A DNA stretch of 61,008 bases from Nemertoderma westbladi. Lineage: Eukaryota > Animalia > Xenacoelomorpha. The stretch spans positions 1 to 61,008 of the forward strand of contig JAUCBJ010000465.1 of NCBI GenBank assembly GCA_032718475.1, read 5' to 3'. The translations under genes were made by a program, and so were the position numbers. A model generated the notes under the pieces. It saw only the letters and a program-made list of their open reading frames with translations, was not told where the DNA came from and made no database searches. Below, piece by piece: positions 20,932-45,174 of this stretch (positions are counted from its first letter, which is position 1; each line of letters starts with the position of its first letter).

Positions 20932-21545
20932 GTAACCGTTGCTATGCAACGATTCAACTCTCAAAAACAACCAAACTCACAAACTTTATTTATTTACAAA
21001 GTTACCAAGTTACGTAGATGACTTAGGCACTGTATATAAAAACACATTTGAAATTTTTGAAGCATGCCATAGTGTAGGCCACTTCTTTGTAGAGATTAGA
21101 TTATTTGCTTTGATATATTTCATGGTTTTACATAATTTATTTATCGTATCACAATAATTGTAGGCAACGATAATCATTTTCTATTCATTATTTGTGTAAC
21201 TTGATTGTTTTACAAAATGAATTCATTATTATAACCTATTTCACTGACTTGTAAATATATTATTCTCATCCCAATCAACTATATAACTTATTTTTTTTTG
21301 AGATGTGTTATTTTCTGCCATGCGTTATCGTTATTTCCTGGATATTAGCAACAACATAATTATTATTACCTGGGTATACATTTAATGGTGGCGCCATAAA
21401 AAAATGGATTGACAGTTGACACTAGTGCCGGGACTAGCGGCCGTTAAGGAACATACCTACCTTTTATTTCATTCAAAAACAGTTAACAATAAACATAACA
21501 ATGTATTCAGATTAAGAAGGTAGTTCCGAGCCCATATCTTCATGT

Positions 21546-22853
21546 TCTGCTGTCCAGGTGGGAAACCACTGCTAGAGAGCAGGAACAATCCTGTCTGCTG
21601 TACAGGTGGAGAACCACTGCTAGAATGCAGGAACAATCCTGTCCAGATGGAGAAACACTGCTAGAGAGCAGGAACAATTGTGTCTGCTGACCAGGTGGAG
21701 AACCACTGCTAGAGAGCAGGAACAATCCTGTCCAGATGCAGAAACACTGCTAGAGAGCAGGAACAATTGTGTCTGCTGACCAGGTGGAGAACCACTGCTA
21801 GAGAGCAGGAACAATCCTGTCTGTTGTCCAGGTGGGGAACCACTGCTAGAGTGCAGGAACAATCCTGTCTGCTGTTCAGGCGGAGAACCACTGCTAGATA
21901 GCAGGAACAATCCTATCTGCTGTCCAGATGGAGAACCACTGCTAGAGAGCAGGAACAATCCTGTCCAGATGCAGAAACACTGCTAGAGAGCAGGAACAAT
22001 TGTGTCTGCTGACCAGGTGGAGAACCACTGCTAGAGAGCAGGAACAATCCTGTCCAGATGCAGAAACACTGCTAGAGAGCAGGAACAATTGTGTCTGCTG
22101 ACCAGGTGGAGAACCACTGCTAGAGAGCAGGAACAATCCTGTCTGTTGTCCAGGTGGGGAACCACTGCTAGAGTGCAGGAACAATCCTGTCTGCTGTTCA
22201 GGCGGAGAACCACTGCTAGATAGCAGGAACAATCCTATCTGCTGTCCAGATGGAGAACCACTGCTAGAATGCAGGAACAATCCTGTCTGCTGTCCAGGTG
22301 GGGAACCACTGCTAGAGAGCAGGAACAATTCAGTCTGCTGTCCAGGTGGAGAACCACTGCTAAAGTGCAGGAACAATTCAGTCTGCTGTCCAGGTGGAGA
22401 ACCACTGCTAGAGAGCAGGAACAATTCTGTCTGCTGTCCAGGTGGATAACCACTGCTAGAGAGCAGGAACAATTCTGTCTGCTGTACAGGTGGAGAATCA
22501 CTGATAGAGAGCAGGAACAATTCAGTCTGCTGTCCTGGTGGAGAACCACTGCTAGATAGCAGGAACAATTCAGTCTGCTGTCCAGGTGGAGAACCACTGC
22601 TAGAGAGCAGGAACAATTCAGTCTGCTGTCCAGGTGGAGAACCACTGCTAGAGAGCAGGAACAATTCAGTCTGCTGTCCAGATGGAGAACCACTGCTAGA
22701 GAGCAGGAACAATTCAGTCTGCTGTCCAGGTGGAGAACCACTGCTAGAGAGCAGGAACAATTCAGTCTGCTGTCCAGATGGAGAACCACTGCTAGAGAGC
22801 AGGAACAATTCAGTCTGCTGTCCAGGTGGAGAACCACTGCTAGAGAGCAGGAA
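21546..22853. repeat. Minisatellite, 48-bp unit (41-bp variants), ~28 copies
   Basis: Unit GTCTGCTGTCCAGGTGGAGAACCACTGCTAGAGAGCAGGAACAATTCA; explains the ORFs at 21540-22837. Confidence 0.95.
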
Positions 22854-22933
22854 TAAACAAAAAAACTAAAACAATAAACGAGAGTTACGGATATTTTAGA
22901 ATATATTAATAGAGAATCAGCAGTCAGATATAT

Positions 22934-23128
22934 GCTACAGGACCTAACTCTACAGGACCTAATGCGCCAAGACCTAAAGCTACATGACCTAATGCGCCAG
23001 GACCTAACGCTACAGGACCTAAAGCTACGAGCCCTAATTCGTCAGGACCTAATGCGCCAGGACCTAACGCTACAGGACCTAATGCGCCAGGACCTAACGC
23101 TACAGGACCTAATGCGCCAGGACCTAAA
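22934..23128. repeat. 15-bp minisatellite, ~13 copies
   Basis: Alternating CAGGACCTAATGCGC / CAGGACCTAACGCTA. Confidence 0.9.
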
Positions 23129-25424
23129 GTATACCGATTTGGTATACCAATATATTGTGCTACGACGTCCTGACGTAGCGGTTCTACGACGCAGCAGTGC
23201 TACGTGGAAATCATATAATGGGTTGTCTAAAGGTCTTGGGACCATATATCCCATTTTGGCACTTCTAGAGGGAAAATTGAAGAGTTATCAAAAAAGAAAG
23301 ACAAGCAAACGGTTGTTATTTGTTATTGTTATTGACTTAGACGTCAGTCTGTCAGTATACAATGATTCGAATACTGTACATTTGTGTCTGCTGTTGATAA
23401 CAATAATTTGTTCCTGTTTGACTACTGTACATGCAATTCATTATCTGCCATTTGTTGCTTTTTCTATCTTGTAATGTAATGTGTTTAAATTGTAGCTGGG
23501 ACCTGCCGGGGTCAAGGGTCATACATTATCGCATCATTGCGAAATTTTATTGTGTTAGTATTGTGTTAGTGTCAATAACATACTGTACAACATACTAAAA
23601 AATAATCCTACACCTATTTCATAGTTATAATTTATATTTTTAGTAGTAGAGGTCTATTACTTAACCATATGGTTGTATCTCTCTTGCTGGTTTTGTAAAT
23701 TATCTACTGTCATACTAAATATCTCGAAAACTAACTGCTCTACTCTTTTTTTGGAGGTTTCTACCCCAACTAAATCGATGATTGCGATTCGAATGGTGCT
23801 ATGTTTGAGTCTGTGGGATCAATAGAACCAATATTTTCGGCGAAATTTAAAATTATTCTGTTTGCGGCTACATATATTTCAATATGATCCATTTAATTAT
23901 TGTGTATTAAAGGCCAATAGCCCGATGAAAATTGTTAATTCAAGCTAAATTTACGTGTGGCTAAGTCAACACGAATAGTTCCCAAAAGGCACTTTGGCAT
24001 TTAATTGTAAATCATTATTAGTGATGATATTAACTGTACTACATTATACAGTACGCCTAAGTGTCTGAGTGTACATAGCATAGTAAGCATAGTTTAGTTC
24101 CCCATCTCGGCCTTAAATTAAATTAAAGCATACTACCTATAGCATTAGCTTGATTGAACATGCTTAAATATGAAATGAATTACACCGCGCAATTATTGTA
24201 GGTCATACTGTCGAGGCATTTAAGACAAGATTAATTTTACAGTTCTCAATGGTAATATAAAGTTCGATCGCGTAACCCAATTTCGAAGTTCAAACACCCC
24301 ACTAGACCTAGTCAGTCGTAAAGTACTAATTGCCTCGGTGTACCCACGAATCCGTGGGAGCACTTATACAACGGATCGTTACTTTGATACAATAGGTGGG
24401 ACGTAAAGTACAGTAGATATTGATGGCTGTAAACTGAAATTAGGGGGGGGGGGGGTATGTTGTAATATACGTGTAGACAGTTCCGTTTCACTACGTTGTA
24501 TGCAAGTATTCGTAATTATGACTTATTATGAATTAATAATGAAACATTTGTGAAAGGTCTAGGTATAGGGTAAGTATACTTATTACTCGTACTATTGAAT
24601 CGATATTGCTATACATTGATCTTAAATATATTTGTTATGAATGCTTGTGTTCGTGTTGGTAAATAATATTACAGTGTTGGATGTCATACACACTCAATAC
24701 GTTTGAACCGTTGTCGCCTGTAGGGCAATACTCGAAGTTAGCAACTCACCTATTATGGTGGTAAATAAAACGAGATGTTTCCTTTAAACAATGTTAATAC
24801 ATAATGAGCAACAACGATAATAACAGCAATAATAACAATAAATCAATGTTAACTATGTAAGTATGTAAGATAAGCATGTAAAAGGGTAAGTAAGTGAAAG
24901 TAAGGTAATAGTCTAGACCTCTTAAATCTTATGAGGTCTATTTACGGGGTTTGAGGGTAATAATATGAAGGTTACGCCTACAAAATGAACTAAATCTAAA
25001 CTATAAATACAATTGTCACAGAAGGACGGTCACTGGTAGTAGTAGCCAATGAGGACCCACAAACACGAAAGCAACACTACTCGCTATCTGTAAGCTGAGT
25101 GCAGACTTTCTGAGCCGACCAATAGGAGAAATAGGCAGACTAAATACAAATGTCAGATTTACCAGCACGAATAAGTAGTGGGGCTAGCCGTGTATCTGAA
25201 TAGCTATATTGCTGTACACAACACATATTATACAGTAACACTAGCGTTACATAGATTTTGGGGCTTGTGGAGCTGCATCAAAACATACCTACTGTATTTA
25301 ATGTAAATCTTTTATAAAAAAGTTTTTATAAAAAATTCCAGATTATAGTATGAAACTGTCAATACGGTAGGCCTATTACATTTGTATTATATACAATAAT
25401 AATGTCGCTCCATTCATTTAAATT

Positions 25425-27279
25425 TTTTTTTTATATAGGGGTGAATAATTAAATTCTAGAATATTAATTTTATAAATATATATCATTATAATTTAATTTA
25501 TATAGTAAATAACGAATGACTCATTGATAACATCACATAAATACAAACTCAGTTAGGTACAGTTCGTAGGTAATCGAATCCATTGATAAATCAATAGTTG
25601 GTAAGTTGGGGACTAAATTGGATATAGTGGAAGGCTGAGCTGGGGTCGGATGTAGTTGGCTCTAGAGGAGTAGGATCTCGTTGAGGTCTGCCTTGGCTGG
25701 TAGGGTACCAAGCACAGCGGTGGCGTTTCCCCGGACAATGGCCATCGACAACCTCTGGAAGAGAAATGTGGTCGCCCTTGGTTCGGCGGATTTTAGCGAG
25801 ATGCGGCGGCCGATCTCTCGAAGGATTTGTGTTCCTTCACTACCGATATCACCTAGGGTCTCGACAGCAATGGTGGTGAAGTGGTAGTTGTGCTGGAGCT
25901 CGGTATATTTTCTTAATTTTGCAGATTCGGCAGATGCGGCAGCGGCACCTGCTGTAGAGGAAGTGCCTGGAAGGTGGGACGCGGCCAGGGTGTCCCTGCA
26001 TGTGAAGTCCCACACGAGAGGTTTTCCTGTAGCCCATGGTGCAAGAGTCATTCCGTCCGGCACCTTACCATCGTGGGACAGACCTCGCGGCTCGAGGGTA
26101 GAAACAACTCCTGCAGAGGTTAGGGCACGATGGATTATATCATTGGCCTCTGCGTGGCGGGTGAATTTACCATAATTGTGGATACACAAGAGGCCATGGG
26201 TGGCCCATCTGTCTACTAGACCGCCACAACCACGGCAGTTATGCTCGACGCTGATAGGGGCTCCGAGACGCAGCGCTACACCTACTCGGAGCTGGTCGTC
26301 CTCGAGACGGAGACCAAGAGATGAGATAGGCATGGCATGGAGCCAGTCGCCTGCATGGTCTGCCACTGAAGCTAGAAGGCGTGCCTTGTGTGATGGGGAC
26401 TTCGCTCCATCAAGGATTTTCTTTGAGGCAGTAACATCCAATGGATTGCTCCAGGCTTTCTGGAATATGGGGTTGATAGGTACTTCGTAGTCTGTTGGAA
26501 GGGCTCTCAGGCCTTGGTCGAACCAGTGGTTGGGTGCTTCGATGATCGGTGGTGGAAGAAGGGATTGTAGTAGGGGACCGCATCCTGAGAACGAAGCCAA
26601 AAAGGCCGGTATTGAGATGTCCCTCGTACTGCTTACCCCAAGGCCACCAAGAGCGATGGGTAGAGAGGCTTGACGCCAAGTGATGTCATCCAGCTGGATA
26701 TTGAGTGCGATTTCCAGAGCTTTTTTGATGGTCTCATCGAAGATGTCAAGCTGTGGTGATGTGAAGCATGGAGCACATCTAAGTGTGTACATTAGCTTCG
26801 GGATTGCAAAACAGTGTCTCAGAAGGTAAAGGGCATCATGTGCAGAAAGTAGATGAAGACGGCTAGCGAAGGTAGATAGTTCAAGGTGTTTCTGCACCAA
26901 GACTGTTTCCAAGGCCTTATCACCAAGTGGTGCACCTAGAAGGATGGATTCTTCGAAATCAAATGGTTTAATGTCTGGGGTGATGGATTGAAATGTGGCG
27001 AGGGTGGATTCCTTCAAACTCTTAGGAAAGTCCTTGTGGAAGATGAGTTCGCATTTAGAGGGTTTGATCGATAGACCCAACTTAGCTGCTTCACTGATGA
27101 TGGTCTTCAAATTTTCAGCAACTGAAAGGGCGGACCCACCTAGGGAGCCATCGTCAAGAAACCAAACATTGAAGATACAGTTTAAAGAGTCCACAAACCC
27201 GTGGATGTCGGAGCTGAAGAAGAGGGAAGCCAAAGGATCACCCTGCTGGCTGCCATTGTCGGAGTTAATAATCTCCTTG
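25425..27279 (-). mobile_element. 5'-truncated CRE-clade (RLE-type) non-LTR retrotransposon
   Basis: RT motifs QQGDPL and WFLDDG, CCHC knuckle (CRGCG...HGL.C), RH, PDG, D-T--D and AE--K--KY restriction-like endonuclease motifs; 3' UTR and poly(A); TSD CCATTCATTTAAATT at 25410-25424 and 27280-27294. Confidence 0.9.
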
Positions 27280-27287
27280 CCATTCAT
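25662..27287 (-). CDS. Uninterrupted 541-aa partial RT + RLE endonuclease ORF of the CRE-like element (copy 1)
   Basis: ORF track; lacks the N-terminal RT motifs; ATG lies within the TSD. Confidence 0.7.
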   Translation of the reverse strand: MNGKEIINSDNGSQQGDPLASLFFSSDIHGFVDSLNCIFNVWFLDDGSLGGSALSVAENLKTIISEAAKLGLSIKPSKCELIFHKDFPKSLKESTLATFQSITPDIKPFDFEESILLGAPLGDKALETVLVQKHLELSTFASRLHLLSAHDALYLLRHCFAIPKLMYTLRCAPCFTSPQLDIFDETIKKALEIALNIQLDDITWRQASLPIALGGLGVSSTRDISIPAFLASFSGCGPLLQSLLPPPIIEAPNHWFDQGLRALPTDYEVPINPIFQKAWSNPLDVTASKKILDGAKSPSHKARLLASVADHAGDWLHAMPISSLGLRLEDDQLRVGVALRLGAPISVEHNCRGCGGLVDRWATHGLLCIHNYGKFTRHAEANDIIHRALTSAGVVSTLEPRGLSHDGKVPDGMTLAPWATGKPLVWDFTCRDTLAASHLPGTSSTAGAAAASAESAKLRKYTELQHNYHFTTIAVETLGDIGSEGTQILREIGRRISLKSAEPRATTFLFQRLSMAIVRGNATAVLGTLPAKADLNEILLL

Positions 27288-27574
27288 TTAAATTATGTTT
27301 ATTCCTTTATTATTACGTCACGTGAACGTGAAGTAAACAAAATTGCACCCTAACACCACGTATGAGTAATTTCAATGAAATGAAATGTAATATAAGTAGA
27401 TTTGAGAGTCAGGATCAGGGAAGGGGAACGGAAAGACAGGCTAGCTAATTAGCAGGGCTGGTAGACGCTAGTGCTATCCACCGTATTCCGCATGATGTGG
27501 GGGGCACTAATCAGACACAGACTCAGTCAATGAGACAGGGGGGGGGGGGGGGGGGACTGAACGCAAATCCCATC

Positions 27575-27742
27575 TTGGCGAATTAATATCCCGCCTCAAT
27601 GTTAAATTCTCAATTCATAGGGAAAGGAGCAGGAGCAGGAGCAGGTTACAGTGGCTCGTTATTTTAACCAAAACAATAAACTAAACACAATAGAACAGGT
27701 TACAGTTTTATTTTTGAGAATTATCAGCTGTTATTTGCGTCG
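27575..27742 (+). repeat. Dispersed non-coding repeat family (core CAGGTTACAGTGG...TAACCAAAACAATAAAC)
   Basis: Related copies at ~33705, ~41047, ~49097-49252 (inverted), ~54152, ~56628 and ~57841. Confidence 0.7.
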
Positions 27743-28859
27743 AATTTCCCCTGGAGAGGGATTAATTATTGCGTCGAAAGTCCCCCCTATCTGCAGTCAA
27801 TACGGCGAATGAATATTAATACTATGTTGAACTACTGTACAATAACTACAGTAAGTAATACAGTACTTTATCAATTAGCACTTATACAGTAAAGTGTTCT
27901 TAAATAAGGATAAAGTTCTTTAGGCCTACCCGGTGCCCGGATCTCAGCGAATAAAGAATTTCAACTAAATTCCAGAATGCCAAAGTGCCTTTGGGGAACT
28001 GTTAGAATCATTCTACAGTTCCCCAAAAGCACTCTGGCATTTACGCTGGTGGCTGTTTGCAATTATTTAGGTACCTGGAAAATGCCAAAATGCCAAAGTG
28101 CCTTTTGGGAACTAACTATTCCTGTGACTTAGCCACACGTCTAAATTTAAACTAAAACATCATGCAGACTGCAAATAATCGAAATTTTAAATGGGTAATT
28201 TTTTTTAAAGTTTTATAATATTATTAATATAATTATAATAATTTAATAATTTATAATTGTTAATTAAAAGACAATAGCTCATTCAAATATTAAAAAAAAA
28301 TTTTCTGAAATTACTATTGCGTGGTGTTCTGAAAAAAAAATTTGAGGTAGGTATTTTTTTTTTACTAAAAGTCGATTTAAACGCACTGTGATTTACATAC
28401 GATAACTATTTCATATGAGCACTTTATATTGCAGTAGGCTATTATTGTAGAATTTCAAGCTGGTTCCATGTTCTAGTGATAGGCATACTACTACAGTTGT
28501 ACAGTTGTAGGCCTACTAACTGAACTAATATTACTGTATTAACACAGTAACATGCCCAGCTGCCCAGATTTTAATCAGAATCAGAATCCCATTTCAATTT
28601 CAATGTCAATATTCCGACAGTCTGACAATCCTGCAGTCCGACTGTCCGACATCCGATGATGGATGACTGACAGACTGAATGATAAGCAACGTTAGTACGT
28701 CAGTACGTGGATTTCTACAGCTAAAAACGACAGAATCCAGCCAGCATCTGGCATACCGGTACCTTCTCAAAAAGACATAATCTGTAAACAGGCTTCGACT
28801 TTTACTATTACTGCCTATTGAATATTGACAAAAAGCGCGCCACACGGGCCCTGCAGCGG

Positions 28860-28950
28860 GTCACTACTCAGTCTCTAGACGACTTCAACTTAAACCTTCC
28901 CAACACCTACAACCTCCTGTTGGCCCCCAAATCGACAGTTTCCAGTATCG
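28860..28950 (+). other. Candidate 5' non-coding exon of zinc-finger gene copy 1 (copy 2 ends at 42422)
   Basis: CpG-richer segment ending TCG|GTGAGT at 28950; start position is approximate. Confidence 0.4.
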
Positions 28951-29559
28951 GTGAGTTACTATTATTTGTATTGTAAACATCGTTTTAGTCCGTATTGCCC
29001 CCAAACTGGTCAGAGTAATTGTTTATTTATAGTGACAGTTATGATGGTTCTGAGTTTAGTTTTTGTTTTTTAGGGTTTTTATCTGATTTAATTAAATTCA
29101 ATCTAGCCTGAAGCCTTTCTCACCAAATAACAAATATAATATACGAAGCCTATTTCCCAAACTCACCGAATTGCAAACAAAACTCCAGAATAGAAACATC
29201 CCATTTTTAGCTTTGTCAGAGAAATGGCTGGACTCTATTATCCAGAGGAAGAAATACAAATACAAGGGAATTCATTCTGCGTCGCACAAGTTATTGTGAT
29301 TACTCTGGATTCCCGAATAGACGGGGCGACACGGATATTATTTTTTTTAAAAAAATCCACCCACAATTCTCTTATTCCAGACACCCCGACTATTAAGTTT
29401 TTCTAAAAAATTTAGTACATTTTTTATTATGAGTAAATAAACGTTTATTCTCATAGATAAGGTAACCAGATAAGGTAACACATGGAACAAAATAGCAATA
29501 TTACATATTAATAATTACCTACTTAAAAAGAGAGACGGAAATTCGAATTCTGGATGGAC

Positions 29560-30300
29560 TATTTCCACGATTATTCACTTAATAATATTCATTTATTGAA
29601 TATTTCTTGTACCTCACAACAGAATGCACATAATTTAGGTAACTCCGGTAAATTACAATGAAACAGGTTATTTATGGATGTATAATTACTGAAACCAAAT
29701 TTACAGCGCAGGTCTTTAGTGTAATCACAGTGTAATAGCACGTGTTCTTCTTCCTGTACTACACCCAGCTCACATGAACATATGCGGTCGCTTGGCGTAC
29801 GTGACCACCTTCCTTTTTGCGCTACGTAGGTTGTGTGAGAATGTACGAAATCTCGTAAAAGCTATCCTCTGGTAATCGGATATGCACAAAGTGCTATTTG
29901 AGTAGATTTCGTTCGAGCATAATTGAAGGTTTATATTTTCACGGTACAATCTAAACTTTGTAGCCGTTGTCGAATTATTAACTACTTTCCACCTTAGTGC
30001 CTTTAACGAGTAGGCCTCCACATCTATATCGCAGGCAGTACTAAGTAACTGGAACATTTTTATGTTAGAATCCGATGTTAATTTAAATATTTGCTTGATG
30101 GGTAACGATTCATCTAATATTCTTGAATATGGTAACCCGCTTTCTAACAGGCATATATCATTCGGGGTAGTTATTCGTACACCTAATAGAGATTTTATTG
30201 CTTTCATATACAAAGTGTCTATAATCTTAAACTTCATATCGATAGTACATAAATCTATATATATCTATATTACATATCGGAATCGCTGTCTTATAAATAG
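29560..30300 (-). mobile_element. Degraded LINE 3' fragment (RTE-X-like C-terminus) in the zinc-finger intron
   Basis: KSLLGVRITTPNDICLLESG, TRFRTFSHNL, then frameshifted ICSC...QEEEHVLLHC zinc-binding motif. Confidence 0.7.
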
Positions 30301-30657
30301 GTCCTACCTATTGCGTCTATCACTTTAAAATATTCCGTTTTTCGAGACACTCCATAATCACATTAATCAGTGCTGCAATATTTTCTAAGACCCCTTTACA
30401 GGTTATAATATTTCAGTCAGTATCAGTAATTAATGGTGCTTATTTTATATTTTATGTTTTTTTAGTAATTTAAGTATCAAACCTCACACGTATTAATTTA
30501 CAATATCGAATCGAAAATCTTATTTATTTACATATATGAATTTAAAACTACAGTAATTAGCAAGTTCTATTGACTAATTATTGCATTAATTACTTCAATT
30601 ATTCTCGTTTCCAATATTCTCCATTATTAATCCACTCCACTCCATTATTTTCTCTAG

Positions 30658-31235
30658 GCGACCAATCTCAACCATTTCCTGATGATTCAGACATGCTCGC
30701 TTCAGACGATGACGTAACACCCGGAAGTATGAATAATCCCTTCGACCAACCTGGTCCCTCTGGGATTCAACCCCAGGACATTATAAAAGGAAGCCGCAGC
30801 AAAAAGAAACCCTTCGGTTGTGATACTTGTGATAAAGCGTTCGCATGGAACAGCAACCTAATTCAACACCAACGGGTCCACACTGGCGAGCGTCCTTACC
30901 AATGCGGCATCTGCTACGAACGTTTCTCTCGTCTAAGCCACCTAACCGTGCACAAGCGGAGCCACAGTGGGGAGAGACCGTATAACTGCAATGAGTGCCA
31001 GAAACGTTTCTCTCACCTAGGCAACCTAACCGTGCACAAGCGGAGCCACAGTGGGGAGAGACCGTATAACTGCAATGAGTGCCAGAAACGTTTCGCTCAA
31101 CTAAGCAACCTAACCAGGCACAAGAGGACGCATTCCGGAGAACGTCCGTCCGTACGTATAATTTTATATGGGCATACTACAGAAAACGCTTCAATATTTT
31201 TGAATGTAACGGGCAAATACCTCTCGAACTTTTGA
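30658..31235 (+). CDS. C2H2 zinc-finger exon, copy 1: four fingers, truncated at the duplication breakpoint
   Basis: TTTCTCTAG| acceptor at 30657, in-frame ATG at 30693, four CxxC...HxxxH fingers with TGERP/SGERP linkers; homology to copy 2 ends at ~31157. Either reads through to a stop at 31235 or splices at 31151. Confidence 0.85.
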
Positions 31236-31619
31236 CTCCAGATCAAATAATTTTTTTGCTAATGTTAGCATGCTCCGCGCCGCCCGACGAACGTGTTACT
31301 TATTTTATTTTGTTATTTATGTAAATGTTTTAAGCCGGTAGGCACCTAGTTATATTGTATCTTGTTATCAGATATATAGTGGCTGAAGTTGGTCGCATGT
31401 AAAAATTGACCTCCAGCGGAAATTGGTCGCAAATAACAGCTGAATACGGGCAAAAATTCAACTGTAACCATTGCTATTCACTCTGGTTTATCGTTTTGGT
31501 TAGAATAGCCTGCTACTGTATCCAGCTCATTTCCCTAAGTTGTTAATGTCAACGTTGGCGTTGATTGTATTTATTATAATTGTGGAACTTTGAAAAAAAA
31601 TTTGTTTATTTTCATTTAG

Positions 31620-34600
31620 GACGCCGCTCGTTTAGGAAACAAAAAGAAGAAACAAATGAAATTGAATGAAGAAAAATTAAAATCGCGAAGTTTGTCAGCC
31701 GAGAAAGTGCCGAATGGTAAGTTCAGTTGAGAGAAAAATACGTGGGCGTTGCGTTGTGAGGTTCACAGTTTAATCGTAATTTATATTATTTAAATTTTTA
31801 TATTATTCTTATTTAAAGTTAATTAAAATAAGCCAGCATATGCTGTGTGCATATATCCTTTGTGGGACCTTTGTACAGGACAATCCAAACAAGCTTAGCT
31901 TACGGGTTTATGTTATTTCAACCGCTGCGCTGGCTTGTTGCCCTCCTGCGGGAAACTGGATAACTGCTGAGTCACTCAAATTATATTTCAGATTTTTGAG
32001 AAACCACTTGTGTATCAAGTTTTGTTTAATTTCATCAAAGGGTGACAGACATACGACATTAGGCCTCAGACAGAAAGACATATCGACTGGAAGATATCGG
32101 TAACTGTACCTACCAATATGCTAAGCAGTTACTTCGTCGCTCGATATACAACAATAGAGCCGCTCAACAGCGGGATACTTACTGTAAGAATATCAGGGAT
32201 ACTTTCTGTAAAAATCTCAGAATACATTACACTAACTGACATACTGAATGACATACTGACTGATAATTATCTAGGTTAAGGCACTTCCTGCCAGGCGATT
32301 TTGATGAAATTTTGCAAGTACATTGCTTTGGTGGTTCATAATCGCGTTACAAAATTTCAGATCGATTCTATGTGTGGTATTCGATATATTTAGTTTTTTG
32401 ACATTGTTTTGTCGCGAAATTAAAAGCAATGGTAAAATAACAGCTGGTGTTCATGATGAAATATGGCTTAATATGTTATACACAGTCATTGTTAGCTTAT
32501 CCAATTCCGCTAACACAAACCCATAGAGTGAGCCATAAAGCAATATTGGAAGCACGAGGTTGATTACCAATCAACCTCGTGTCATCCCAGTAAACGGGGA
32601 CAATAGGCCCCAAAGGAGACACACACAATAAGGGTCAGGGGTTACTCCCCTGACAAGAGAGAGAATAGCTGGGGTGAACGGGAAACACACCAGGGAAGGT
32701 GAAGGGGCGAGAAGTGGGATATTAGCCAATGGGGGGACAGCATCGACTAGGTACACTAATGTGGCCAACCGTGCAGTATATTACCTGTTGGTGCTCCCCT
32801 ATTCAGTCAGTTATCTCAGTCGGTCAGTACAGTCAGGTAGTACGGTGACAGTTAGGACCGTCACCGCCGTCATCACATTACCGGTACCAGTGCAGCAGTA
32901 TTCAGTGCTATCTGCTATTGTACCTATACACTATATGTTATCTCAATTTATATCCTTAACAACAACGTCAGAACAACAACTCTTTTCATCCACACGGCGG
33001 GGACGCGTACGTAACCAACACCGGATAAACCGGGATCCTCTCGGATCCCGTCACAGTCATAGAAAAACGTGTTGGTTGCCAAGTTTTACTAGTAGGCTAT
33101 AAGGAAAGGCAATGTTTACTCACACATAAGCTGTGGGTTTCTAATGTATTACCCCATAAGATGATTGCTCTCCCAGTGCTTTGTAAGGGTATATCTACAA
33201 TAAGGAAACTAAATTGATTATTTGGCTCTATTCGTTGTTATTTAGTTGTTGTTTTATTTTTAATTTAGTTAATTTAGTTTTAAAATTGTTGATTTAGTTG
33301 TAGAAGAAATAGTAGAGGAAATGGAGGCTTCTTCTAAGGAAGCGGAGAGTGAGGCGGAAATGGAGGCTTCTTCTACGGAAGCGGAGAGTGAGGCGGAAAT
33401 GGAGGCTTCTTCTACGGAAGCGGAGAGTGAGGCGGAAATGGAGGCTTCTTCTACGGAAGCGGAGAGTGAGGCGGAAATGGAGGCTTCTTCTACGGAAGCG
33501 GAGAGTGAGGCGGAAATGGAAGGCGATATCAACCCGCTTCAAGATGTTAGTTATAGGCCTAATTCTAATAAAAATAAATAAATAATTATCTATATTAAAA
33601 TATATAACCCCCAACTCAGGCAACAACTATTACTATCTCGGCTATTGTGTTGCTGCCGTTCCCACACCGTACACCCCAATTTACGTTATTTATTTAAGGT
33701 AAGGAACAGGTTACTGTGGCACGCTATTCTAACCAAAACAATAAACTAAAGTCAATAGAACACGACCCCCTCCATAATCCATATCTGTAACAAATTATGA
33801 AGCGGTGATTGGTAACCTAATTCAATAACGATTTGTCTTTAATATTATTATCTTGATTTTTTTAATTGAATTAATTTTAATTATTGTGGGTTTTATCGGT
33901 TGTTACATCTACTACTCTACAGGAACTTATTGCGGCGGAGCGACAACGCAAAGCGGTTGAGGATGAGCGAGACGAGTTGGCGGAAGAGACGGCCGGGATA
34001 GCTAGTAACCGTGGCAACGCACTCGACGAGAAACGCCGCCGACACGAGTTTGAGAAACGCCGACTCAAGTCGAAAATACAACATTTGGAAAACGATCTGG
34101 AGGAGGAGCGATCATACGTATCGTGGCTCCAAGAAAAGTTAGAATGTTCAAATATATATTTCTATCTAATAATATTTGTCGCTATCAGTTATTGTTTAAG
34201 TTTAGGTAATCCTACATCAAACTTTGTGTTGCAGGTCGAACAAGTCGCAGCAGCAAGTAGATACGCTGACCACTGCCCTAGCAACCGAACGATCTATCAC
34301 GCAGAAGCAAGTAGATATGCTGACCACTGACCTAGCAACCGAACGATCTATCCAGCAGAAGCTTGACAACGACATACTCATGTTGGAACGACAGAATCGC
34401 GACCTCCAGCAGAAGCTGCAGAAGTCGCGAATGAGAACAACGATCCAGGGACTGGAGCAGAAGCTCAACCAGCAAGCTGATATGAACAAGGAGCAGGTAG
34501 GTGGAGGTGTACAACTCTTAAACACCTCCCAGTGGGTTGTCGATCACATAAACTGCAGCTGGTTTGGGTTATAAACACCCACAATCTCTCTGGTAGCACG

Positions 34601-35024
34601 ATTTATCAATGAATATACGTTAGAGGTTACAGCCCAAACAATTATAACTCTATTGGTTGCAACCCAGATGTGATCCCATTGGTTACTAAAATCCAACCCT
34701 GCTGACTTACATATTGTAGCGACAACTATTATACCTAACAACAGTTACACATACACAGTTTGTTGTTGTTCCATTAGATATCCTAGGTTACTGGATTACA
34801 ATTAATTTGTTGTTGATTAGGTTGATAAATACAACCACCGGCTGAAAGCGCAGAAGAGGCAGTTGGAAGAAACAGAGGATGAGGCAACGCGGCTTAAGAG
34901 AAAATGGCAGAGGAAGTTCGATGACGTTACCGAACAGAATGACAGGTTACAGAGAGAAGTTACAACTCTACGTAACAAAGCTGCAGACACCAGCGACGGT
35001 GGGGACACACCCGACGGTGACTAA
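31620..35024 (+). CDS. Motor-less non-muscle myosin II heavy-chain tail-like coiled-coil protein; exons 31620..31716 (internal ATG 31656), 33298..33545, 33923..34137, 34235..34496, 34821..35024
   Basis: GT-AG introns with matching phases (1,0,2,0) and no stops. ELIAAERQRKAVEDERDELAEE, EKRRLKSKIQHLENDLEEE, LERQNRDL, KEQVDKYNHRLKAQKRQLEETEDEA and REVTTLRNK are collinear with the C-terminal rod of MYH9/MYH10/zipper as I recall it. AATAAA at 35108-35113. Confidence 0.78.
32490..33055 (+). mobile_element. Solo LTR, 566 bp
   Basis: TGT...ACA termini, 5-bp TSD GTCAT (32485-32489, 33056-33060); lies in an intron of the myosin-tail gene. Confidence 0.85.
33316..33520 (+). repeat. Coding 39-bp tandem repeat x5 (MEASSTEAESEAE)
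   Basis: Unit ATGGAGGCTTCTTCTACGGAAGCGGAGAGTGAGGCGGAA, in frame within exon 33298..33545. Confidence 0.92.
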
Positions 35025-38000
35025 GATTAGTTGCCTAGCAACCAGACACACAAACTATTCCCGCACATGGCTGCTCTTATTCTGCTGAAGCTTCATTGGT
35101 TCTGGTTAATAAATTAATTGTTGTGCCTAAAAACCTGTTTTAAACAAATGACCCCACCCATACCAACCTGCTGTCTGTCCCATGTCTAGAATCGGTAGCT
35201 ATTTTTTAGTATTTAATAATGATATCAGTTTGATATTTAGTATTTAATGATATCAGTATAAGTCTGCCAAATGGGGGTATTAATTATATATCGTGTGCAA
35301 ATTAATTAGTTTGGTATTAATTAATAATTGTTATTGGGGTTCTTTATTAATTAATTTGTGCTGGTGTGTCTATTACTTGTGCTTGCGAATTTATGCTGAG
35401 TTTGTAATTAATTAATCCGCTTTCTCATCTAATTATCTAACAATCTTTTAGATGGGCCATAATTTTTGGTTTCTATATTTTAATATTATTATTGTAGGCC
35501 TACAATATTTGCCATAACTTAGCTCAACCATTATTTGATTTCCTGAAACTTAAATTATAACCATTCCTATATTGCATGAAGCTTGTTATAGTGATAGTAT
35601 ATATTTAATTAATTAAACCATCCTAATATCATATTCCACAAATAGAATGAAAATCCAGAAATATCCTAGTGTGGTGCCAGTGTTGTTGTAGGTTTAGAAG
35701 TCTATTGATTTTCGTCTCCTTTGGTATGAATCACATACGTAAAGGTTTTGGTTAATAGCTAAAGAAATTATTGTTAAAAACCAATAATTAGCGACCCAAT
35801 CATTCAATTAAGAGTCCCTATTAGAGCTTGTGACGTCACATCATTATGATTTTTTATAAATAGTTTTCATTAATAACATTCACTGGATGTAAAATGTTAT
35901 TTGTATTGATTTCGGTTTATGATTTAATGATAAATTATCGACTATATTGTGGAATTTGTTTGGTTTCAATTATTTGACGCGATTTTAGGAAATTCAGCGT
36001 TTGAATCATTCCAAGATAGACTATTTATCCGTATTAATAATTGTATTGGCGTAGAAACTTGTGCGGAATTATTTACGCCCCCTAGTGACGCGGTAGCCCA
36101 ACGATTTACTATGCCCAGCTCCATCTAGTGGTATTTTGTTATATTGCCGAATTCTTTGGGTGTGTTTGTGTCCGACGCTAGGCGGATTTTAGCTTAGGTA
36201 TATCAAATAATTTCCACGTACATTGTCTTGTCTCTTTTGTCAGCTATATATGTTATTATAAAATAATTATATTATTATATTTACTATTATATTATTTACA
36301 GTGATTTGAGTATTATAATATTGGATACAGAATGACGTCACTTTAACTTTTTGTTATGTTTATTGAAGGCGCACATCACAATTGGAAAATAAAAGGTTGT
36401 GGAAATATACATTCTGAAAATCGCGAATTCATACAACAAGGGAGACAACCCCCCCCCCCCCCCCCCCCCCATTTTTGCGGTAGCTAATATAATTGTGCTA
36501 CAGCCACGTTTTATTTTCTACCTCTAACAACTATTATAGTCCAAAATTGGGGTCTGGGTTTTACCTGTAAATAAATGAGAAATTTTAAACAGCCACAGGG
36601 AATAAATCTGTCAAAGACAAATTTCTGTGGTAGATTTATGGCTGAAATATAACGACAGGTATAGCTGTACTGTATGTGTCGTCTTCCTTGTGAGGTTATT
36701 TGAAAGGTCGTTACGATAACACTATTTGTAACTAAGTGATGCGTACTTAATTTAGGGCACGTGTTGTAACACTAAGTTACCAATTTAAATGACAATCAAC
36801 TTGTCCTAATTTCAATTATCACAGAAATGTAGGGGATGAGACGTTCGATAGATTTAAAGATATTACTGTATGTTAAGTACCTCGCGAAATGTAACTGATA
36901 AAATAATAAATAGGTTTCGGTGTCCGTTTCACACGACGATGCGAACTCGATCATGTAATCGTGCAACGGGAAAATATATAGTTATTAATTTGTCAGAAGT
37001 TAATTGCTCCACAGACACATACAGATTGCCTCGATTTATAAATCGCACGGATATACGGGGCCTTACTCCTTATATGGTATTACGCAGACTGCCAATTAAT
37101 GAAATTCAAATAAACTATAGAAATTGATGGTTGCACGTATTTACTCAATGGCATTCGAATCTAGGTGTACCTATAATTCCTTGCATAGATCACGAATATC
37201 ATACACACAATGTTCACAAATTTAAACGAAATACCAAATACGTTGTACCAAATATTAAATGTCACACCGCACTTACGTACTAAAGAAGAGTATCCGTTAC
37301 TGTTGATGCCCCACTAGTTCATTCAAGCCGATTGCCTCGATTTACAAGTCGCTCAGATAGACGAGGCCTTACTCCGTGCAAGTTTGTAGGTTTTACACAC
37401 GAAGAGTAACAGGATACTTCAACCTTATCAATAAGGCGTCAACAAAGTAGTACTTGGCCCGTAATATAAAGTAAAACGATCAATCAGAAAACTACGTAGT
37501 TTCAGTCCTACACGTATTAATTCCAGTTTATTCACGAACAAAATCACTAACGTAGGTAAGAACGTCCGAGCGTGCACTCTCATAGAACCTACCTTAAGCT
37601 AGTTGGTTGTTTGATGTTGCAAAGTACCGTACTTTATTTCATCAAAGTAACAAGAGAACGACTATTACTGTCGAGGCATTTAAGACAAGATTAATTTTAC
37701 AGTTCTCAATGGTAATATAAAGTTCGATCGCGTAACCCAATTTCGAAGTTCAAACACCCCACTAGACCTAGTCAGTCGTAAAGTACTAATTGCCTCGGTG
37801 TACCCACGAATCCGTGGGAGCACTTATACAACGGATCGTTACTTTGATACAATAGGTGGGACGTAAAGTACAGTAGATATTGATGGCTGTAAACTGAAAT
37901 TAGGGGGGGATATGTTGTAATATACGTGTAGACAGTTCCGTTTCACTACGTTGTATGCAAGTATTCGTAATTATGACTTATTATGAATTAATAATGAAAC

Positions 38001-38896
38001 ATTTGTGAAAGGTCTAGGTATAGGGTAAGTATACTTATTACTCGTACTATTGAATCGATATTGCTATACATTGATCTTAAATATATTTGTTATGAATGCT
38101 TGTGTTCGTGTTGGTAAATAATATTACAGTGTTGGATGTCATACACACTCAATACGTTTGAACCGTTGTCGCCTGTAGGGCAATACTCGAAGTTAGCAAC
38201 TCACCTATTATGGTGGTAAATAAAACGAGATGTTTCCTTTAAACAATGTTAATACATAATGAGCAACAACGATAATAACAGCAATAATAACAATAAATCA
38301 ATGTTAACTATGTAAGTATGTAAGATAAGCATGTAAAAGGTAAGTAAGTGAAAGTAAGTGAAAGTAAGTAAGTAAGGTAATAGTCTAGACCTCTTAGATC
38401 TTATGAGGTCTATTTACGGGGTTTGAGGGTAATAATATGAAGGTTACGCCTACAAAATGAACTAAATCTAAACTATAAATACAATTGTCACAGAAGGACG
38501 GCCACTGGTAGTAGTAGCCAATGAGGACCCACAAACACGAAAGCAACACTACTCGCTATCTGTAAGCTGAGTGCAGACTTTCTGAGCCGACCAATAGGAG
38601 AAATAGGCAGACTAAATACAAATATCAGATTTACCAGCACGAATAAGTAGTGGGGCTAGCCGTGTATCTGAATAGCTATATTGCTGTACACAACACATAT
38701 TATACAGTAACACTAGCGTTACATAGATTTTGGGGCTTGTGGAGCTGCATCAAAACATACCTACTGTATTTAATGTAAATCTTTTATAAAAAAGTTTTTA
38801 TAAAAAATTCCAGATTATAGTATGAAACTGTCAATACGGTAGGCCTATTACATTTGTATTATATACAATAATAATGTCGCTCCATTCATTTAAATT

Positions 38897-40751
38897 TTTT
38901 TTTTATATAGGGGTGAATAATTAAATTCTAGAATATTAATTTTATAAATATATATCATTATAATTTAATTTATATAGTAAATAACGAATGACTCATTGAT
39001 AACATCACATAAATACAAACTCAGTTAGGTACAGTTCGTAGGTAATCGAATCCATTGATAAATCAATAGTTGGTAAGTTGGGGACTAAATTGGATTTAGT
39101 GGAAGGCTGAGCTGGGGTCGGATGTAGTTGGCTCTAGAGGAGTAGGATCTCGTTGAGGTCTGCCTTGGCTGGTAGGGTACCAAGCACAGCGGTGGCGTTT
39201 CCCCGGACAATGGCCATCGACAACCTCTGGAAGAGAAATGTGGTCGCCCTTGGTTCGGCGGATTTTAGCGAGATGCGGCGGCCGATCTCTCGAAGGATTT
39301 GTGTTCCTTCGCTACCGATATCACCTAGGGTCTCGACAGCAATGGTGGTGAAGTGGTAGTTGTGCTGGAGCTCGGTATATTTTCTTAATTTTGCAGATTC
39401 GGCAGATGCGGCAGCGGCACCTGCTGTAGAGGAAGTGCCTGGAAGGTGGGACGCGGCCAGGGTGTCCCTGCATGTGAAGTCCCACACGAGAGGTTTTCCT
39501 GTGGCCCATGGTGCAAGAGTCATTCCGTCCGGCACCTTACCATCGTGGGACAGACCTCGCGGCTCGAGGGTAGAAACAACTCCTGCAGAGGTTAGGGCAC
39601 GATGGATTATATCATTGGCCTCTGCGTGGCGGGTGAATTTCCCATAATTGTGGATACACGAGAGGCCATGGGTGGCCCATCTGTCTACTAGACCGCCACA
39701 ACCACGGCAGTTATGCTCGACGCTGATAGGGGCTCCGAGACGCAGCGCTACACCTACTCGGAGCTGGTCGTCCTCGAGACGGAGACCAAGAGATGAGATA
39801 GGCATGGCATGGAGCCAGTCGCCTGCATGGTCTGCCACTGAAGCTAGAAGGCGTGCCTTGTGTGATGGGGACTTCGCTCCATCAAGGATTTTCTTTGAGG
39901 CAGTAACATCCAATGGATTGCTCCAGGCTTTCTGGAATATGGGGTTGATAGGTACTTCGTAGTCTGTTGGAAGGGCTCTCAGGCCTTGGTCGAACCAGTG
40001 GTTGGGTGCTTCGATGATCGGTGGTGGAAGAAGGGATTGTAGTAGGGGACCGCATCCTGAGAACGAAGCCAAAAAGGCCGGTATTGAGATGTCCCTCGTA
40101 CTGCTTACCCCAAGGCCACCAAGAGCGATGGGTAGAGAGGCTTGACGCCAAGTGATGTCATCCAGCTGGATATTGAGTGCGATTTCCAGAGCTTTTTTGA
40201 TGGTCTCATCGAAGATGTCAAGCTGTGGTGATGTGAAGCATGGAGCACATCTAAGTGTGTACATTAGCTTCGGGATTGCAAAACAGTGTCTCAGAAGGTA
40301 AAGGGCATCATGTGCAGAAAGTAGATGAAGACGGCTAGCGAAGGTAGATAGTTCAAGGTGTTTCTGCACCAAGACTGTTTCCAAGGCCTTATCACCAAGT
40401 GGTGCACCTAGAAGGATGGATTCTTCGAAATCAAATGGTTTAATGTCTGGGGTGATGGATTGAAATGTGGCGAGGGTGGATTCCTTCAAACTCTTAGGAA
40501 AGTCCTTGTGGAAGATGAGTTCGCATTTAGAGGGTTTGATCGATAGACCCAACTTAGCTGCTTCACTGATGATGGTCTTCAAATTTTCAGCAACTGAAAG
40601 GGCGGACCCACCTAGGGAGCCATCGTCAAGAAACCAAACATTGAAGATACAGTTTAAAGAGTCCACAAACCCGTGGATGTCGGAGCTGAAGAAGAGGGAA
40701 GCCAAAGGATCACCCTGCTGGCTGCCATTGTCGGAGTTAATAATCTCCTTG
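38897..40751 (-). mobile_element. 5'-truncated CRE-clade retrotransposon (duplicated copy; ORF 39134..40759)
   Basis: Same truncation point, TSD and flanks as 25425-27279, so it was copied with the segment rather than inserted independently. Confidence 0.9.
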
Positions 40752-43031
40752 CCATTCATTTAAATTATGTTTATTCCTTTATTATTACGTCACGTGAACG
40801 TGAAGTAAACAAAATTGCACCCTAACACCACGTATGAGTAATTTCAATGAAATGAAATGTAATATAAGTAGATTTGAGAGTCAGGATCAGGGAAGGGGAA
40901 CGGAAAGACAGGCTAGCTAATTAGCAGGGCTGGTAGACGCTAGTGCTATCCACCGTATTCCGCATGATGTGGGGGGCACTAATCAGACACAGACTCAGTC
41001 AATGAGACAGGGGGGGGGGGGGGGGGGACTGAACGCAAATCCCATCTTGGCGAATTAATATCCCGCCTCAATGTTAAATTCTCAATTCATAGGGAAAGGA
41101 GCAGGAGCAGGAGCAGGTTACAGTGGCTCGTTATTTTAACCAAAACAATAAACTAAACACAATAGAACAGGTTACAGTTTTATTTTTGAGAATTATCAGC
41201 TGTTATTTGCGTCGAATTTCCCCTGGAGAGGGATTAATTATTGCGTCGAAAGTCCCCCCTATCTGCAGTCAATACGGCGAATGAATATTAATACTATGTT
41301 GAACTACTGTACAATAACTACAGTAAGTAATACAGTACTTTATCAATTAGCACTTATACAGTAAAGTGTTCTTAAATAAGGATAAAGTTCTTTAGGCCTA
41401 CCCGGTGCCCGGATCTCAGCGAATAAAGAATTTCAACTAAATTCCAGAATGCCAAAGTGCCTTTGGGGAACTGTTAGAATCATTCTACAGTTCCCCAAAA
41501 GCACTCTGGCATTTACGCTGGTGGCTGTTTGCAATTATTTAGGTACCTGGAAAATGCCAAAATGCCAAAGTGCCTTTTGGGAACTAACTATTCCTGTGAC
41601 TTAGCCACACGTCTAAATTTAAACTAAAACATCATGCAGACTGCAAATAATCGAAATTTTAAATGGGTAATTTTTTTTAAAGTTTTATAATATTATTAAT
41701 ATAATTATAATAATTTAATAATTTATAATTGTTAATTAAAAGACAATAGCTCATTCAAATATTAAAAAAAAATTTTCTGAAATTACTATTGCGTGGTGTT
41801 CTGAAAAAAAAATTTGAGGTAGGTATTTTTTTTTTACTAAAAGTCGATTTAAACGCACTGTGATTTACATACGATAACTATTTCATATGAGCACTTTATA
41901 TTGCAGTAGGCTATTATTGTAGAATTTCAAGCTGGTTCCATGTTCTAGTGATAGGCATACTACTACAGTTGTACAGTTGTAGGCCTACTAACTGAACTAA
42001 TATTACTGTATTAACACAGTAACATGCCCAGCTGCCCAGATTTTAATCAGAATCAGAATCCCATTTCAATTTCAATGTCAATATTCCGACAGTCTGACAA
42101 TCCTGCAGTCCGACTGTCCGACATCCGATGATGGATGACTGACAGACTGAATGATAAGCAACGTTAGTACGTCAGTACGTGGATTTCTACAGCTAAAAAC
42201 GACAGAATCCAGCCAGCATCTGGCATACCGGTACCTTCTCAAAAAGACATAATCTGTAAACAGGCTTCGACTTTTACTATTACTGCCTATTGAATATTGA
42301 CAAAAAGCGCGCCACACGGGCCCTGCAGCGGGTCACTACTCAGTCTCTAGACGACTTCAACTTAAACCTTCCCAACACCTACAACCTCCTGTTGGCCCCC
42401 AAATCGACAGTTTCCAGTATCGGTGAGTTACTATTATTTGTATTGTAAACATCGTTTTAGTCCGTATTGCCCCCAAACTGGTCAGAGTAATTGTTTATTT
42501 ATAGTGACAGTTATGATGGTTCTGAGTTTAGTTTTTGTTTTTTAGGGTTTTTATCTGATTTAATTAAATTCAATCTAGCCTGAAGCCTTTCTCACCAAAT
42601 AACAAATATAATATACGAAGCCTATTTCCCAAACTCACCGAATTGCAAACAAAACTCCAGAATAGAAACATCCCATTTTTAGCTTTGTCAGAGAAATGGC
42701 TGGACTCTATTATCCAGAGGAAGAAATACAAATACAAGGGAATTCATTCTGCGTCGCACAAGTTATTGTGATTACTCTGGATTCCCGAATAGACGGGGCG
42801 ACACGGATATTATTTTTTTTAAAAAAATCCACCCACAATTCTCTTATTCCAGACACCCCGACTATTAAGTTTTTCTAAAAAATTTAGTACATTTTTTATT
42901 ATGAGTAAATAAACGTTTATTCTCATAGATAAGGTAACCAGATAAGGTAACACATGGAACAAAATAGCAATATTACATATTAATAATTACCTACTTAAAA
43001 AGAGAGACGGAAATTCGAATTCTGGATGGAC

Positions 43032-43772
43032 TATTTCCACGATTATTCACTTAATAATATTCATTTATTGAATATTTCTTGTACCTCACAACAGAATGCA
43101 CATAATTTAGGTAACTCCGGTAAATTACAATGAAACAGGTTATTTATGGATGTATAATTACTGAAACCAAATTTACAGCGCAGGTCTTTAGTGTAATCAC
43201 AGTGTAATAGCACGTGTTCTTCTTCCTGTACTACACCCAGCTCACATGAACATATGCGGTCGCTTGGCGTACGTGACCACCTTCCTTTTTGCGCTACGTA
43301 GGTTGTGTGAGAATGTACGAAATCTCGTAAAAGCTATCCTCTGGTAATCGGATATGCACAAAGTGCTATTTGAGTAGATTTCGTTCGAGCATAATTGAGG
43401 GTTTATATTTTCACGGTACAATCTAAACTTTGTAGCCGTTGTCGAATTATTAACTACTTTCCACCTTAGTGCCTTTAACGAGTAGGCCTCCACATCTATA
43501 TCGCAGGCAGTACTAAGTAACTGGAACATTTTTATGTTAGAATCCGATGTTAATTTAAATATTTGCTTGATGGGTAACGATTCATCTAATATTCTTGAAT
43601 ATGGTAACCCGCTTTCTAACAGGCATATATCATTCGGGGTAGTTATTCGTACACCTAATAGAGATTTTATTGCTTTCATATACAAAGTGTCTATAATCTT
43701 AAACTTCATATCGATAGTACATAAATCTATATATATCTATATTACATATCGGAATCGCTGTCTTATAAATAG
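43032..43772 (-). mobile_element. Degraded RTE-X-like LINE fragment (duplicated copy)
   Basis: ORF 43242..43709 is almost identical to 29770..30237. Confidence 0.7.
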
Positions 43773-44130
43773 GTCCTACCTATTGCGTCTATCACTTTAA
43801 AATATTCCGTTTTTCCGAGACACTCCATAATCACATTAATCAGTGCTGCAATATTTTCTAAGACCCCTTTACAGGTTATAATATTTCAGTCAGTATCAGT
43901 AATTAATGGTGCTTATTTTATATTTTATGTTTTTTTAGTAATTTAAGTATCAAACCTCACACGTATTAATTTACAATGTCGAATCGAAAATCTTATTTAT
44001 TTACATATATGAATTTAAAACTACAGTAATTAGCAAGTTCTATTGACTAATTATTGCATTAATTACTTCAATTATTCTCGTTTCCAATATTCTCCATTAT
44101 TAATCCACTCCACTCCATTATTTTCTCTAG

Positions 44131-44792
44131 GCGACCAATCTCAACCATCACCTGATGATTCAGACATGCTCGCTTCAGACGATGACGTAACACCCGGAAG
44201 TATGAATAATCCCTTCGACCAACCTGGTCCCTCTGGGATTCAACCCCAGGACATTATAAAAGGAAGCCGCAGCAAAAAGAAACCCTTCGGTTGTGATACT
44301 TGTGATAAAGCGTTCGCATGGAACAGCAACCTAATTCAACACCAACGGGTCCACACTGGCGAGCGTCCTTACCAATGCGGCATCTGCTACGAACGTTTCT
44401 CTCGTCTAAGCCACCTAACCGTGCACAAGCGGAGCCACAGTGGGGAGAGACCGTATAACTGCAATGAGTGCCAGAAACGTTTCCAACAACTAGGCCACCT
44501 AACCAAGCACAAGAGGACGCATTCCGGAGAACGTCCGTACGTGTGCGACACGTGTGGGAAGGAATTTACGGAGAGCTGCAATCTAATGCGCCACAAAAGA
44601 ATTCACACGAAAGATCGACCGTACGTGTGCGAGACGTGCGGGAAGGAATTTACGCAGAGCAGCAATCTACAAACTCATAAGAGATCACATACAGGGGAAC
44701 GACCGTTTAGCTGCGATACATGCGGGAAATGTTTCCTCCACCGACATCATGTAAAGGGCCACAAATGTATCCGCAGCGGGGAGACTCTGTAA
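44131..44792 (+). CDS. C2H2 zinc-finger protein, copy 2: five canonical fingers plus one degenerate finger
   Basis: Acceptor at 44130, in-frame ATG at 44166, TGERP-type linkers, stop at 44792, frameshifted relic of a further finger (NCNVCKKRFS) just after the stop, AATAAA near 44878. Confidence 0.88.
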
Positions 44793-45174
44793 CTGTAATG
44801 TTTGTAAGAAACGTTTCTCAACTTCCATGTATATTGGTAGATATAAGTGTTGTATGAATAATATAATATCATAATCCAATAAATGTCATTTAATTTTAAT
44901 TATTAATCTTCCAACATTTAAGACAAGTCGTACAACACCGTGTAATAATAATAACTTCAATACAGCAATAATACATAAATCACAATTCTAGACCTAACAG
45001 TAGACACCATAGCTCCCTGGTTGCAGTTTAAACTAGTAAACTATATATTAAGACGTTAGTTGTAGATTGAACTGCTACGTGCGCCTTTTGTTATAATGAT
45101 TAATAAAGGTTGTCTAGGGACTGGCCTAGCGGCCCGATAAGGAGCCGATATTGTATTTCATAAAAACTGTCAAT

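Follow-up and report, generated by a model that had tools for sequence, protein, structure and literature searches.

Two young copies of a C2H2 zinc-finger gene in Nemertoderma westbladi differ in the recognition helices of their fingers

Positive selection at the recognition helix positions -1, 3 and 6 has been reported among recent poly-zinc-finger paralogs of mammals, frog and fish, together with short gene-conversion tracts in a few genes, whereas the same study reports no selection signal for fly and mosquito (Emerson and Thomas 2009, PMC2604467). For mouse clusters, segmental duplication accompanied by finger gain, finger loss and new fingerprints has been described (Kauzlaric 2017, PMC5363842; PMC12575710). 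Wells et al. extend the link between zinc-finger genes and transposons across animals, present many families as uncharacterised and voice doubts about a simple defence role (PMC10547256). Hemipteran ZF271-like genes are described as carrying no domain besides their fingers and as including pseudogenes (PMC6444547). In PRDM9, finally, PR/SET, KRAB and SSXRD domains are described upstream of the array (10.64898/2026.09.07.749791).

The locus reported here, located in a window of 61,008 nucleotides (the whole stretch of DNA that was analysed), is one more case of an already known process and a new instance among the fast-evolving zinc-finger families. As far as they are described in PMC2604467, PMC5363842 and PMC12575710, the young poly-ZF and KRAB-ZNF clusters of vertebrates resemble it in their recent segmental duplicates, finger gain and loss and changes at -1, 2, 3 and 6, and also in short conversion tracts, truncated copies and retroelements inside the duplicated unit; unlike in these clusters, no KRAB domain was found in the frames searched here, and there are only 4-6 fingers. 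Lineage-restricted expansion with no close homolog elsewhere is a trait attributed to both the zebrafish FiNZ-ZNFs (PMC10547256) and the ZF271-like genes (PMC6444547), and the latter are also similar in being described without a non-finger domain and with pseudogenes among them. In contrast to the FiNZ-ZNFs, no FiNZ-type region was identified at this locus, and transposon repression, shown for FiNZ-ZNFs (PMC10547256), could be carried over to it by analogy only. The PRDM9 minisatellite, as described in PMC2779102, is alike in its variation at -2, -1, 3 and 6 on an unchanged framework and in the gain of an 84-bp unit. The PRDM9-like pattern proposed in a first-pass annotation of this DNA applies to the sites that vary, but it does not extend further: the array is not homogenised, neither PR/SET nor KRAB nor SSXRD was found in the frames searched, and the family has many copies.

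Self-comparison of the window revealed one long direct duplication (24206-31044 versus 37666-44517, 99.3% identity) of about 6.9 kb per copy, with a spacer of 6.5 kb of other DNA between the copies. Copy 1 (24206..31149, plus strand) comprises flank, a retroelement fragment, a candidate upstream exon, an intron and the zinc-finger exon up to a break; in copy 2 (37666..44538, plus strand) the gene runs on past the end of the segment. To the left of the segment the sequences of copy 1 and copy 2 are unrelated, and unrelated sequence lies on both sides of the copies. The 6,805 bases upstream of the variable helix contain 13 substitutions (0.19%) and 4 indels between the copies, which bears out an earlier statement that some 6.8 kb of flanks are nearly identical. 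These substitutions are unevenly distributed, with 9 of 12 events within the first 2 kb and a stretch of 3,739 bp that has none (p=0.0008; KS p=0.008), as is to be expected if the copies convert each other. No terminal inverted repeats bounding the segment were present among the 25 longest of 394 pairs, and there is thus no sign of a DNA transposon. Inside both copies, on the minus strand, lies a 541-codon open frame (25662..27287; copy 2: 39134-40759) that is likely a non-LTR retroelement fragment: its first match scored 0.97, RVT_1 occurs on 16-42% of the cluster members, and a Pfam search of the frame itself returned no match. Further reverse-transcriptase-like fragments were noticed at 10997-13269 (plus), 29589-30264 (minus) and 58795-59686 (plus), one of them inside the zinc-finger intron; the first has a Pfam RVT_1 match and the other two were recognised by eye only. 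Across the window, the CpG observed/expected ratio is 0.77, a value that suggests a non-vertebrate animal and in this respect sets the locus apart from the vertebrate clusters.

Each copy consists of a candidate upstream exon, an intron and an exon in which the C2H2 fingers are preceded by a short leader, acidic and rich in proline. The putative upstream exon, deduced from the sequence, occupies 28870..28951 (plus strand) in copy 1, with a GTGAGT donor at 28952, and about 42342-42423 in copy 2. It has no ATG, and its 5' end is uncertain, as it may begin at a start site near 28870 or at an acceptor at 28878. In the public sequencing run X4, the exon-2 acceptor is joined, at a loose end, to a stretch whose last letters are like those of the candidate exon. 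A 32-base motif located just upstream (28816-28847) recurs at 56700-56731 (31/32 identical) and could be a promoter element or a small repeat. The zinc-finger exon of copy 1 (30658..31235, plus strand) has its acceptor at 30657, its first in-frame ATG at 30693, four C2H2 fingers and a stop, giving a product of 180 aa that includes a 28-residue read-through tail. Its counterpart in copy 2 (44131..44792, plus strand) has an ATG at 44166, five C2H2 fingers, one C2HC finger and a stop at 44792, giving 208 aa when counted from this ATG, with AATAAA at 44878. At its 3' end, copy 2 retains a weak match to a finger that is out of frame (44773-44847, plus strand; E 0.17-0.34), a remnant suggestive of an older, longer array. 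With four and five units, both arrays contain at least three 28-residue C-x2-C-x12-H-x3-H units with TGEKP-like linkers, as tandem C2H2 (Kruppel-type) proteins do, and in the class test of both arrays Pfam zf-C2H2 and zf-H2C2_2 were above cut-off.

An N-terminal effector domain of the KRAB-, ZAD-, BTB- or SCAN-ZNF kind had no Pfam match in the upstream frames or the N-terminal part of the exon. Likewise, PR/SET, KRAB and SSXRD had no match in 148/148 plus-strand frames of at least 36 aa (13000-24300 and 31236-44130), a size limit that places smaller or more distant exons outside the reach of the search; one 14-residue SET_assoc match at 13912 was below cut-off. For the N-terminal 40 residues, homolog searches turned up nothing specific: one found no relative, in another the best 150 of 1463 hits matched through the fingers only, and atlas scores were at most 0.81.

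Identity between the copies stops at 31149, the sequence is unrelated from about 31150, and the reading frame of copy 1 stops 28 residues later. The break itself (31149..31260, plus strand) is made up of a 4-bp slip and a short filler, followed from about 31160 by the inside of a multi-copy repeat, other copies of which carry different letters before 31160. None of the remaining copy 1 fingers was found elsewhere in the window. Break, repeat and missing remainder together indicate that copy 1 is a 3'-truncated derivative; it may be a pseudogene, and its junction was possibly made by microhomology-guided repair. An extra finger had been ascribed to copy 1, and the 84-bp internal duplication behind it is real, but copy 1 has fewer fingers in all (four, as against five C2H2 and one C2HC).

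Fingers 1 and 2 (finger 2 of copy 1: 30897..30980, plus strand) are identical in the two copies. Finger 3 of copy 1 (30981..31064, plus strand; helix SHLGNLTV) is chimeric, its 5' half being as in finger 4 (31065..31148, plus strand; helix AQLSNLTR) and its 3' half as in finger 2, which is the product expected of an 84-bp unequal crossover. Between the units of the internal duplication (30919-31002 and 31003-31086) there are 4 nucleotide differences, each of them at position -1, 2 or 3. When finger 4 of copy 1 is compared with finger 3 of copy 2 (44454..44537, plus strand; helix QQLGHLTK), 6 nt differ in 4 codons, at helix positions -2, 2, 3 and 6 (numbered by canonical spacing); none of these codons is synonymous, and the other 24 are without difference. 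At the flank rate, 0.16 changes would be expected per finger (P(>=6)=2e-8; P(>=4 events)=2e-5), and the chance that all 4 changed codons fall within positions -2, -1, 2, 3 and 6 is 2.4e-4. The number and positions of these changes are as stated in the first-pass annotation, whose claim that all six are non-synonymous holds per codon and not per nucleotide step. Three of the six nucleotides sit in a single codon, that of position -2, and may be one event; in finger 3 of copy 2 this codon has the same letters as the codon next to it and is three steps away from the one that is commoner in the family. Serine or glycine at position 2 and asparagine or histidine at position 3, sites only 3 nt apart, occur within the window in all four pairings. 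Each finger has about 17 synonymous sites, and there are 0 synonymous framework changes beside the helix changes. CpG decay was ruled out as the cause of the changes at 2, 3 and 6, which lie outside CpG context, and so was adenine-targeted, DGR-like mutagenesis, as 14/26 variants involve A, just as chance gives. Position -2 is not a canonical base contact. Positions -1, 3 and 6 are described as contacting the main strand and position 2 the opposite strand, and selection on -2 is also reported for rodent Prdm9 (PMC2779102). A table in PMC5260015 pairs QSGNLTR with GAA and QSGHLTR with GGA; accordingly, replacing asparagine by histidine at position 3 is predicted to alter the middle base of the recognised triplet, giving roughly GGA in place of GAA.

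Four of the six listed public runs (X1-X4) contain the stretch or part of it; they represent three samples from three studies, X1 and X2 stemming from the same sample. Contigs from X1, X2 and X3 match the finger 3 helix of copy 1 without a single deviating letter. Finger 4 of copy 1 is present together with the downstream junction as an exact 125-base contig in X3 (31065-31189), and its helix recurs with one framework change in X1. For finger 3 of copy 2, the six letters of the helix occur together at one depth in X2 and X4. With each disputed helix in contigs of at least two samples, assembly error is very unlikely; the three helices named in the first-pass annotation are real, and the check for assembly errors, by which its observation would have been refuted, left the differences standing. 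X4 is without depth in the intron (30523-30645) and has a splice-like loose end; this run is likely transcript-derived despite its guessed DNA label, in which case the copy 2 helix would be expressed. No weight was given to gaps, namely to the end of X4 cover at 31160, to the copy 2 helix being unlisted in X1 and X3, or to the copy 1 finger 4 helix being unlisted in X2. Summed contig depth drops sharply over the helices, and contigs from the intron have several times the depth of those specific to a helix; contig depth was not taken as copy number. Within 30947-31050, the exact finger 3 contig of X1 has a depth of 858 and an adjoining contig with a 2-base deletion one of 834; X2, from the same sample, has a depth of 74 and no deletion, and the X1 pattern is possibly a library artefact.

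The organism contains many related sequences. At 80% likeness, 887, 1216, 820 and 365 contigs in the four runs fall on 30400-31600 (1.2 kb), part of them on repeats past 31160, and at single exon positions such as 30704, 19-34 contigs of each run agree on one alternative letter. These contig numbers and shared letters point to many paralogs. Hundreds of contigs in the four runs are 80-99% alike, and among the 120 homologs listed the best is at most 53% identical; a 26-nt framework motif had 0 matches in metagenome and viral contigs. With its many recent paralogs and, as judged from the homologs listed, no close orthologs in other lineages, this is a lineage-specific ZNF expansion, and the family is best read as a young, lineage-specific poly-zinc-finger family in which no effector domain was found in the regions searched. 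AQLSNLTR is not tied to a single framework: contig records 24, 8 and 31 carry this helix with 0, 1 and apparently 5 differences, respectively, in the framework. Besides the fingerprint of copy 2, six further combinations at -1/2/3 were obtained by phasing through shared depth and are to that extent deduced: Q-S-H, Q-S-N, Q-G-H, E-S-H, R-G-H and R-S-N. Paralogs reuse few residues at -1, 2, 3 and 6 in many combinations.

Variation across the family is suggestive of helix enrichment. Among the 26 variant rows listed for fingers 2-4 at 90% likeness, 11 lie at -1, 2, 3 or 6 (3.7 expected, p=5e-4) and, with position -2 included, 17 lie at one of the five positions (p=1e-7); after removal of the 6 rows explained by copy 2, the figures are 8/20 (p=0.004) and 11/20 (p=2e-4), respectively. 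Non-synonymous changes at contact positions are 3.7 to 6.1 times as frequent per site as synonymous changes (p=0.007 to 0.001), a ratio that comes from a biased variant table and not from a site model. Among the 40 of 390 rows listed at 80% likeness, 7 of the 13 with the best support within fingers 1-4 are at -2, -1 or 6. These family-level counts are biased, as variant rows from one contig are not independent and each of the 26 rows sits 31 or more letters in from the ends of some contig, which leaves framework differences near contig ends under-listed (5 for record 31 and 3 for record 32). As a control, 268 other zinc-finger proteins provided 471 within-protein finger pairs, rather than paralog pairs, that differ by 1-5 residues: 37% of the differences are at -1, 2, 3 and 6, or 42% with -2, and 12 of the 393 pairs with 3-5 differences (5/89 proteins) have all of them in the five positions. 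Helix enrichment as such is ordinary; its completeness at this locus is in the upper few percent and not unique.

On balance, we favour the explanation that the two genes are very young segmental duplicates from a multi-copy C2H2 family, the helices of which have probably been diversified by unequal crossover and short gene conversion, plus diversifying selection on DNA specificity. The extra finger of copy 1 would stem from crossing-over of finger 2 with the finger that follows it. Helix codons would travel between paralogs, because helix and flank histories disagree, and exchange between the copies is also indicated by the patchy flanks, by AQLSNLTR in several frameworks and by the -2 codon copying its neighbour. 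Selection would favour changes that alter DNA specificity: the four pairings at 3-nt spacing need repeated mutation or a tract end between the two sites, and together with the lack of synonymous framework change they argue for selection. Since copy 1 is possibly a pseudogene, selection may have acted on the donors and not on copy 1 itself. It speaks against this explanation that helix changes become enriched even if nothing but purifying selection on the framework is at work, as the control figure of 37% illustrates. Positive selection or inter-finger conversion had already been suggested from the two copies, and non-neutral change at recognition codons with a role for conversion or unequal crossover is upheld. 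The two-copy comparison is nevertheless misleading, because the copies belong to a larger, helix-sharing family and 6 nt need not equal six selected mutations since the duplication.

We consider it rather unlikely that copy 1 is simply a dying pseudogene that received its distal part from an older paralog by ectopic crossover, its framework being kept constant by purifying selection and diversifying selection playing no part. Such a history would suit a copy that is broken at a repeat, with patchily diverged flanks and a finger 4 helix that record 31 seems to show in a more diverged framework, and it would suit the generic enrichment of 37-42% in other proteins. An older donor should, however, have brought synonymous changes, of which there are 0 at the roughly 17 synonymous sites in finger 4; the tandem unit has 0 framework changes, and just 12 of the 393 near-identical pairs in other proteins confine their differences to the five helix positions. 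Point mutations driven by positive selection, all fixed since the split of the two copies and without any exchange, are somewhat less likely still, as one finger would have had to undergo about 5 events and its neighbour 3 within 0.19% divergence, and the same helix is found in other frameworks. Recurrent mutation is compatible with the four 2/3 combinations at 3-nt spacing, and most changes are single-nucleotide steps from commoner family codons, but the 3-nt difference in the -2 codon of copy 2 finger 3, identical to its neighbour, looks more like slippage or micro-conversion. We see hardly any likelihood that the gene is PRDM9 or a truncated paralog of it, with an array evolving through hotspot erosion. 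None of the 148 upstream frames matches SET/PR, KRAB or SSXRD, the family has many copies, and within-gene finger pairs more than 90% identical number 0/6 in copy 1 and 0/15 in copy 2 (0/21 in total; best 81% and 75%), and this stands against variable sites that include -2, -1, 3 and 6, as reported for rodent Prdm9 (PMC2779102), truncated Prdm9 paralogs reported in cnidarians, and the uncertain 5' end of the gene. Just as little credit is due to an assembly artefact in the form of two haplotypes or mis-called bases. It could be invoked on account of the 99.3% identity and close spacing of the copies, and one run may be the source sample, with read support covering the helices and the copy 1 junction but not the left junctions; yet every disputed helix recurs in a further sample, X3 bridges the copy 1 junction, and the copies are embedded in unrelated sequence.

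For the family favoured here, made up of young duplicates with exchanged and selected helices, repeats or transposons would, purely by analogy, be the likeliest class of targets, a suggestion that we hold with about as much doubt as confidence. The transposon arms race put forward in the first-pass annotation is plausible as a reasonable prior drawn from other families. A bolder idea, to which we give little credence, is that an effector-less family shuffles helix micro-cassettes of about 25 nt between paralogs on a frozen framework, yielding combinatorial specificities against young repeats, in likeness to the conversion-driven diversification of immune receptors; a narrow literature search found nothing on helix-restricted interlocus conversion in zinc-finger genes, which does not show that the idea is unpublished. 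At this locus, predicted zinc-finger specificity has been caught changing between copies that are only 0.19% apart. Published tests are reported to have detected such selection in the expansions of vertebrates, with fly and mosquito negative (PMC2604467); PMC10547256 describes many families of animals as uncharacterised. At genome scale, the family would be a clean setting for telling conversion and point mutation apart and for asking which targets are bound by proteins of an effector-less family.

Several other features of the window deserve mention. A 287-codon open frame with a Gly/Met/Ser-rich end (16683-17546, plus strand) resembles a genuine orphan-gene exon; it had no Pfam match and no homolog at E<=0.001. 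Between the two copies, three frames at 33881-35021 (plus strand) match the myosin tail family and apparently represent a piece of a myosin heavy chain gene that is broken and stands alone. The region is rich in repeats, with several long minisatellite arrays, their periods being 47-52 and 10-20 bases, at 2012-3454, 18246-19912, 21546-22853, 47695-48669 and 50707-52024. A 454-base inverted repeat (92%; 50049-50501 and 52830-53268) surrounds a 10-base-period array and is possibly a foldback-like element.
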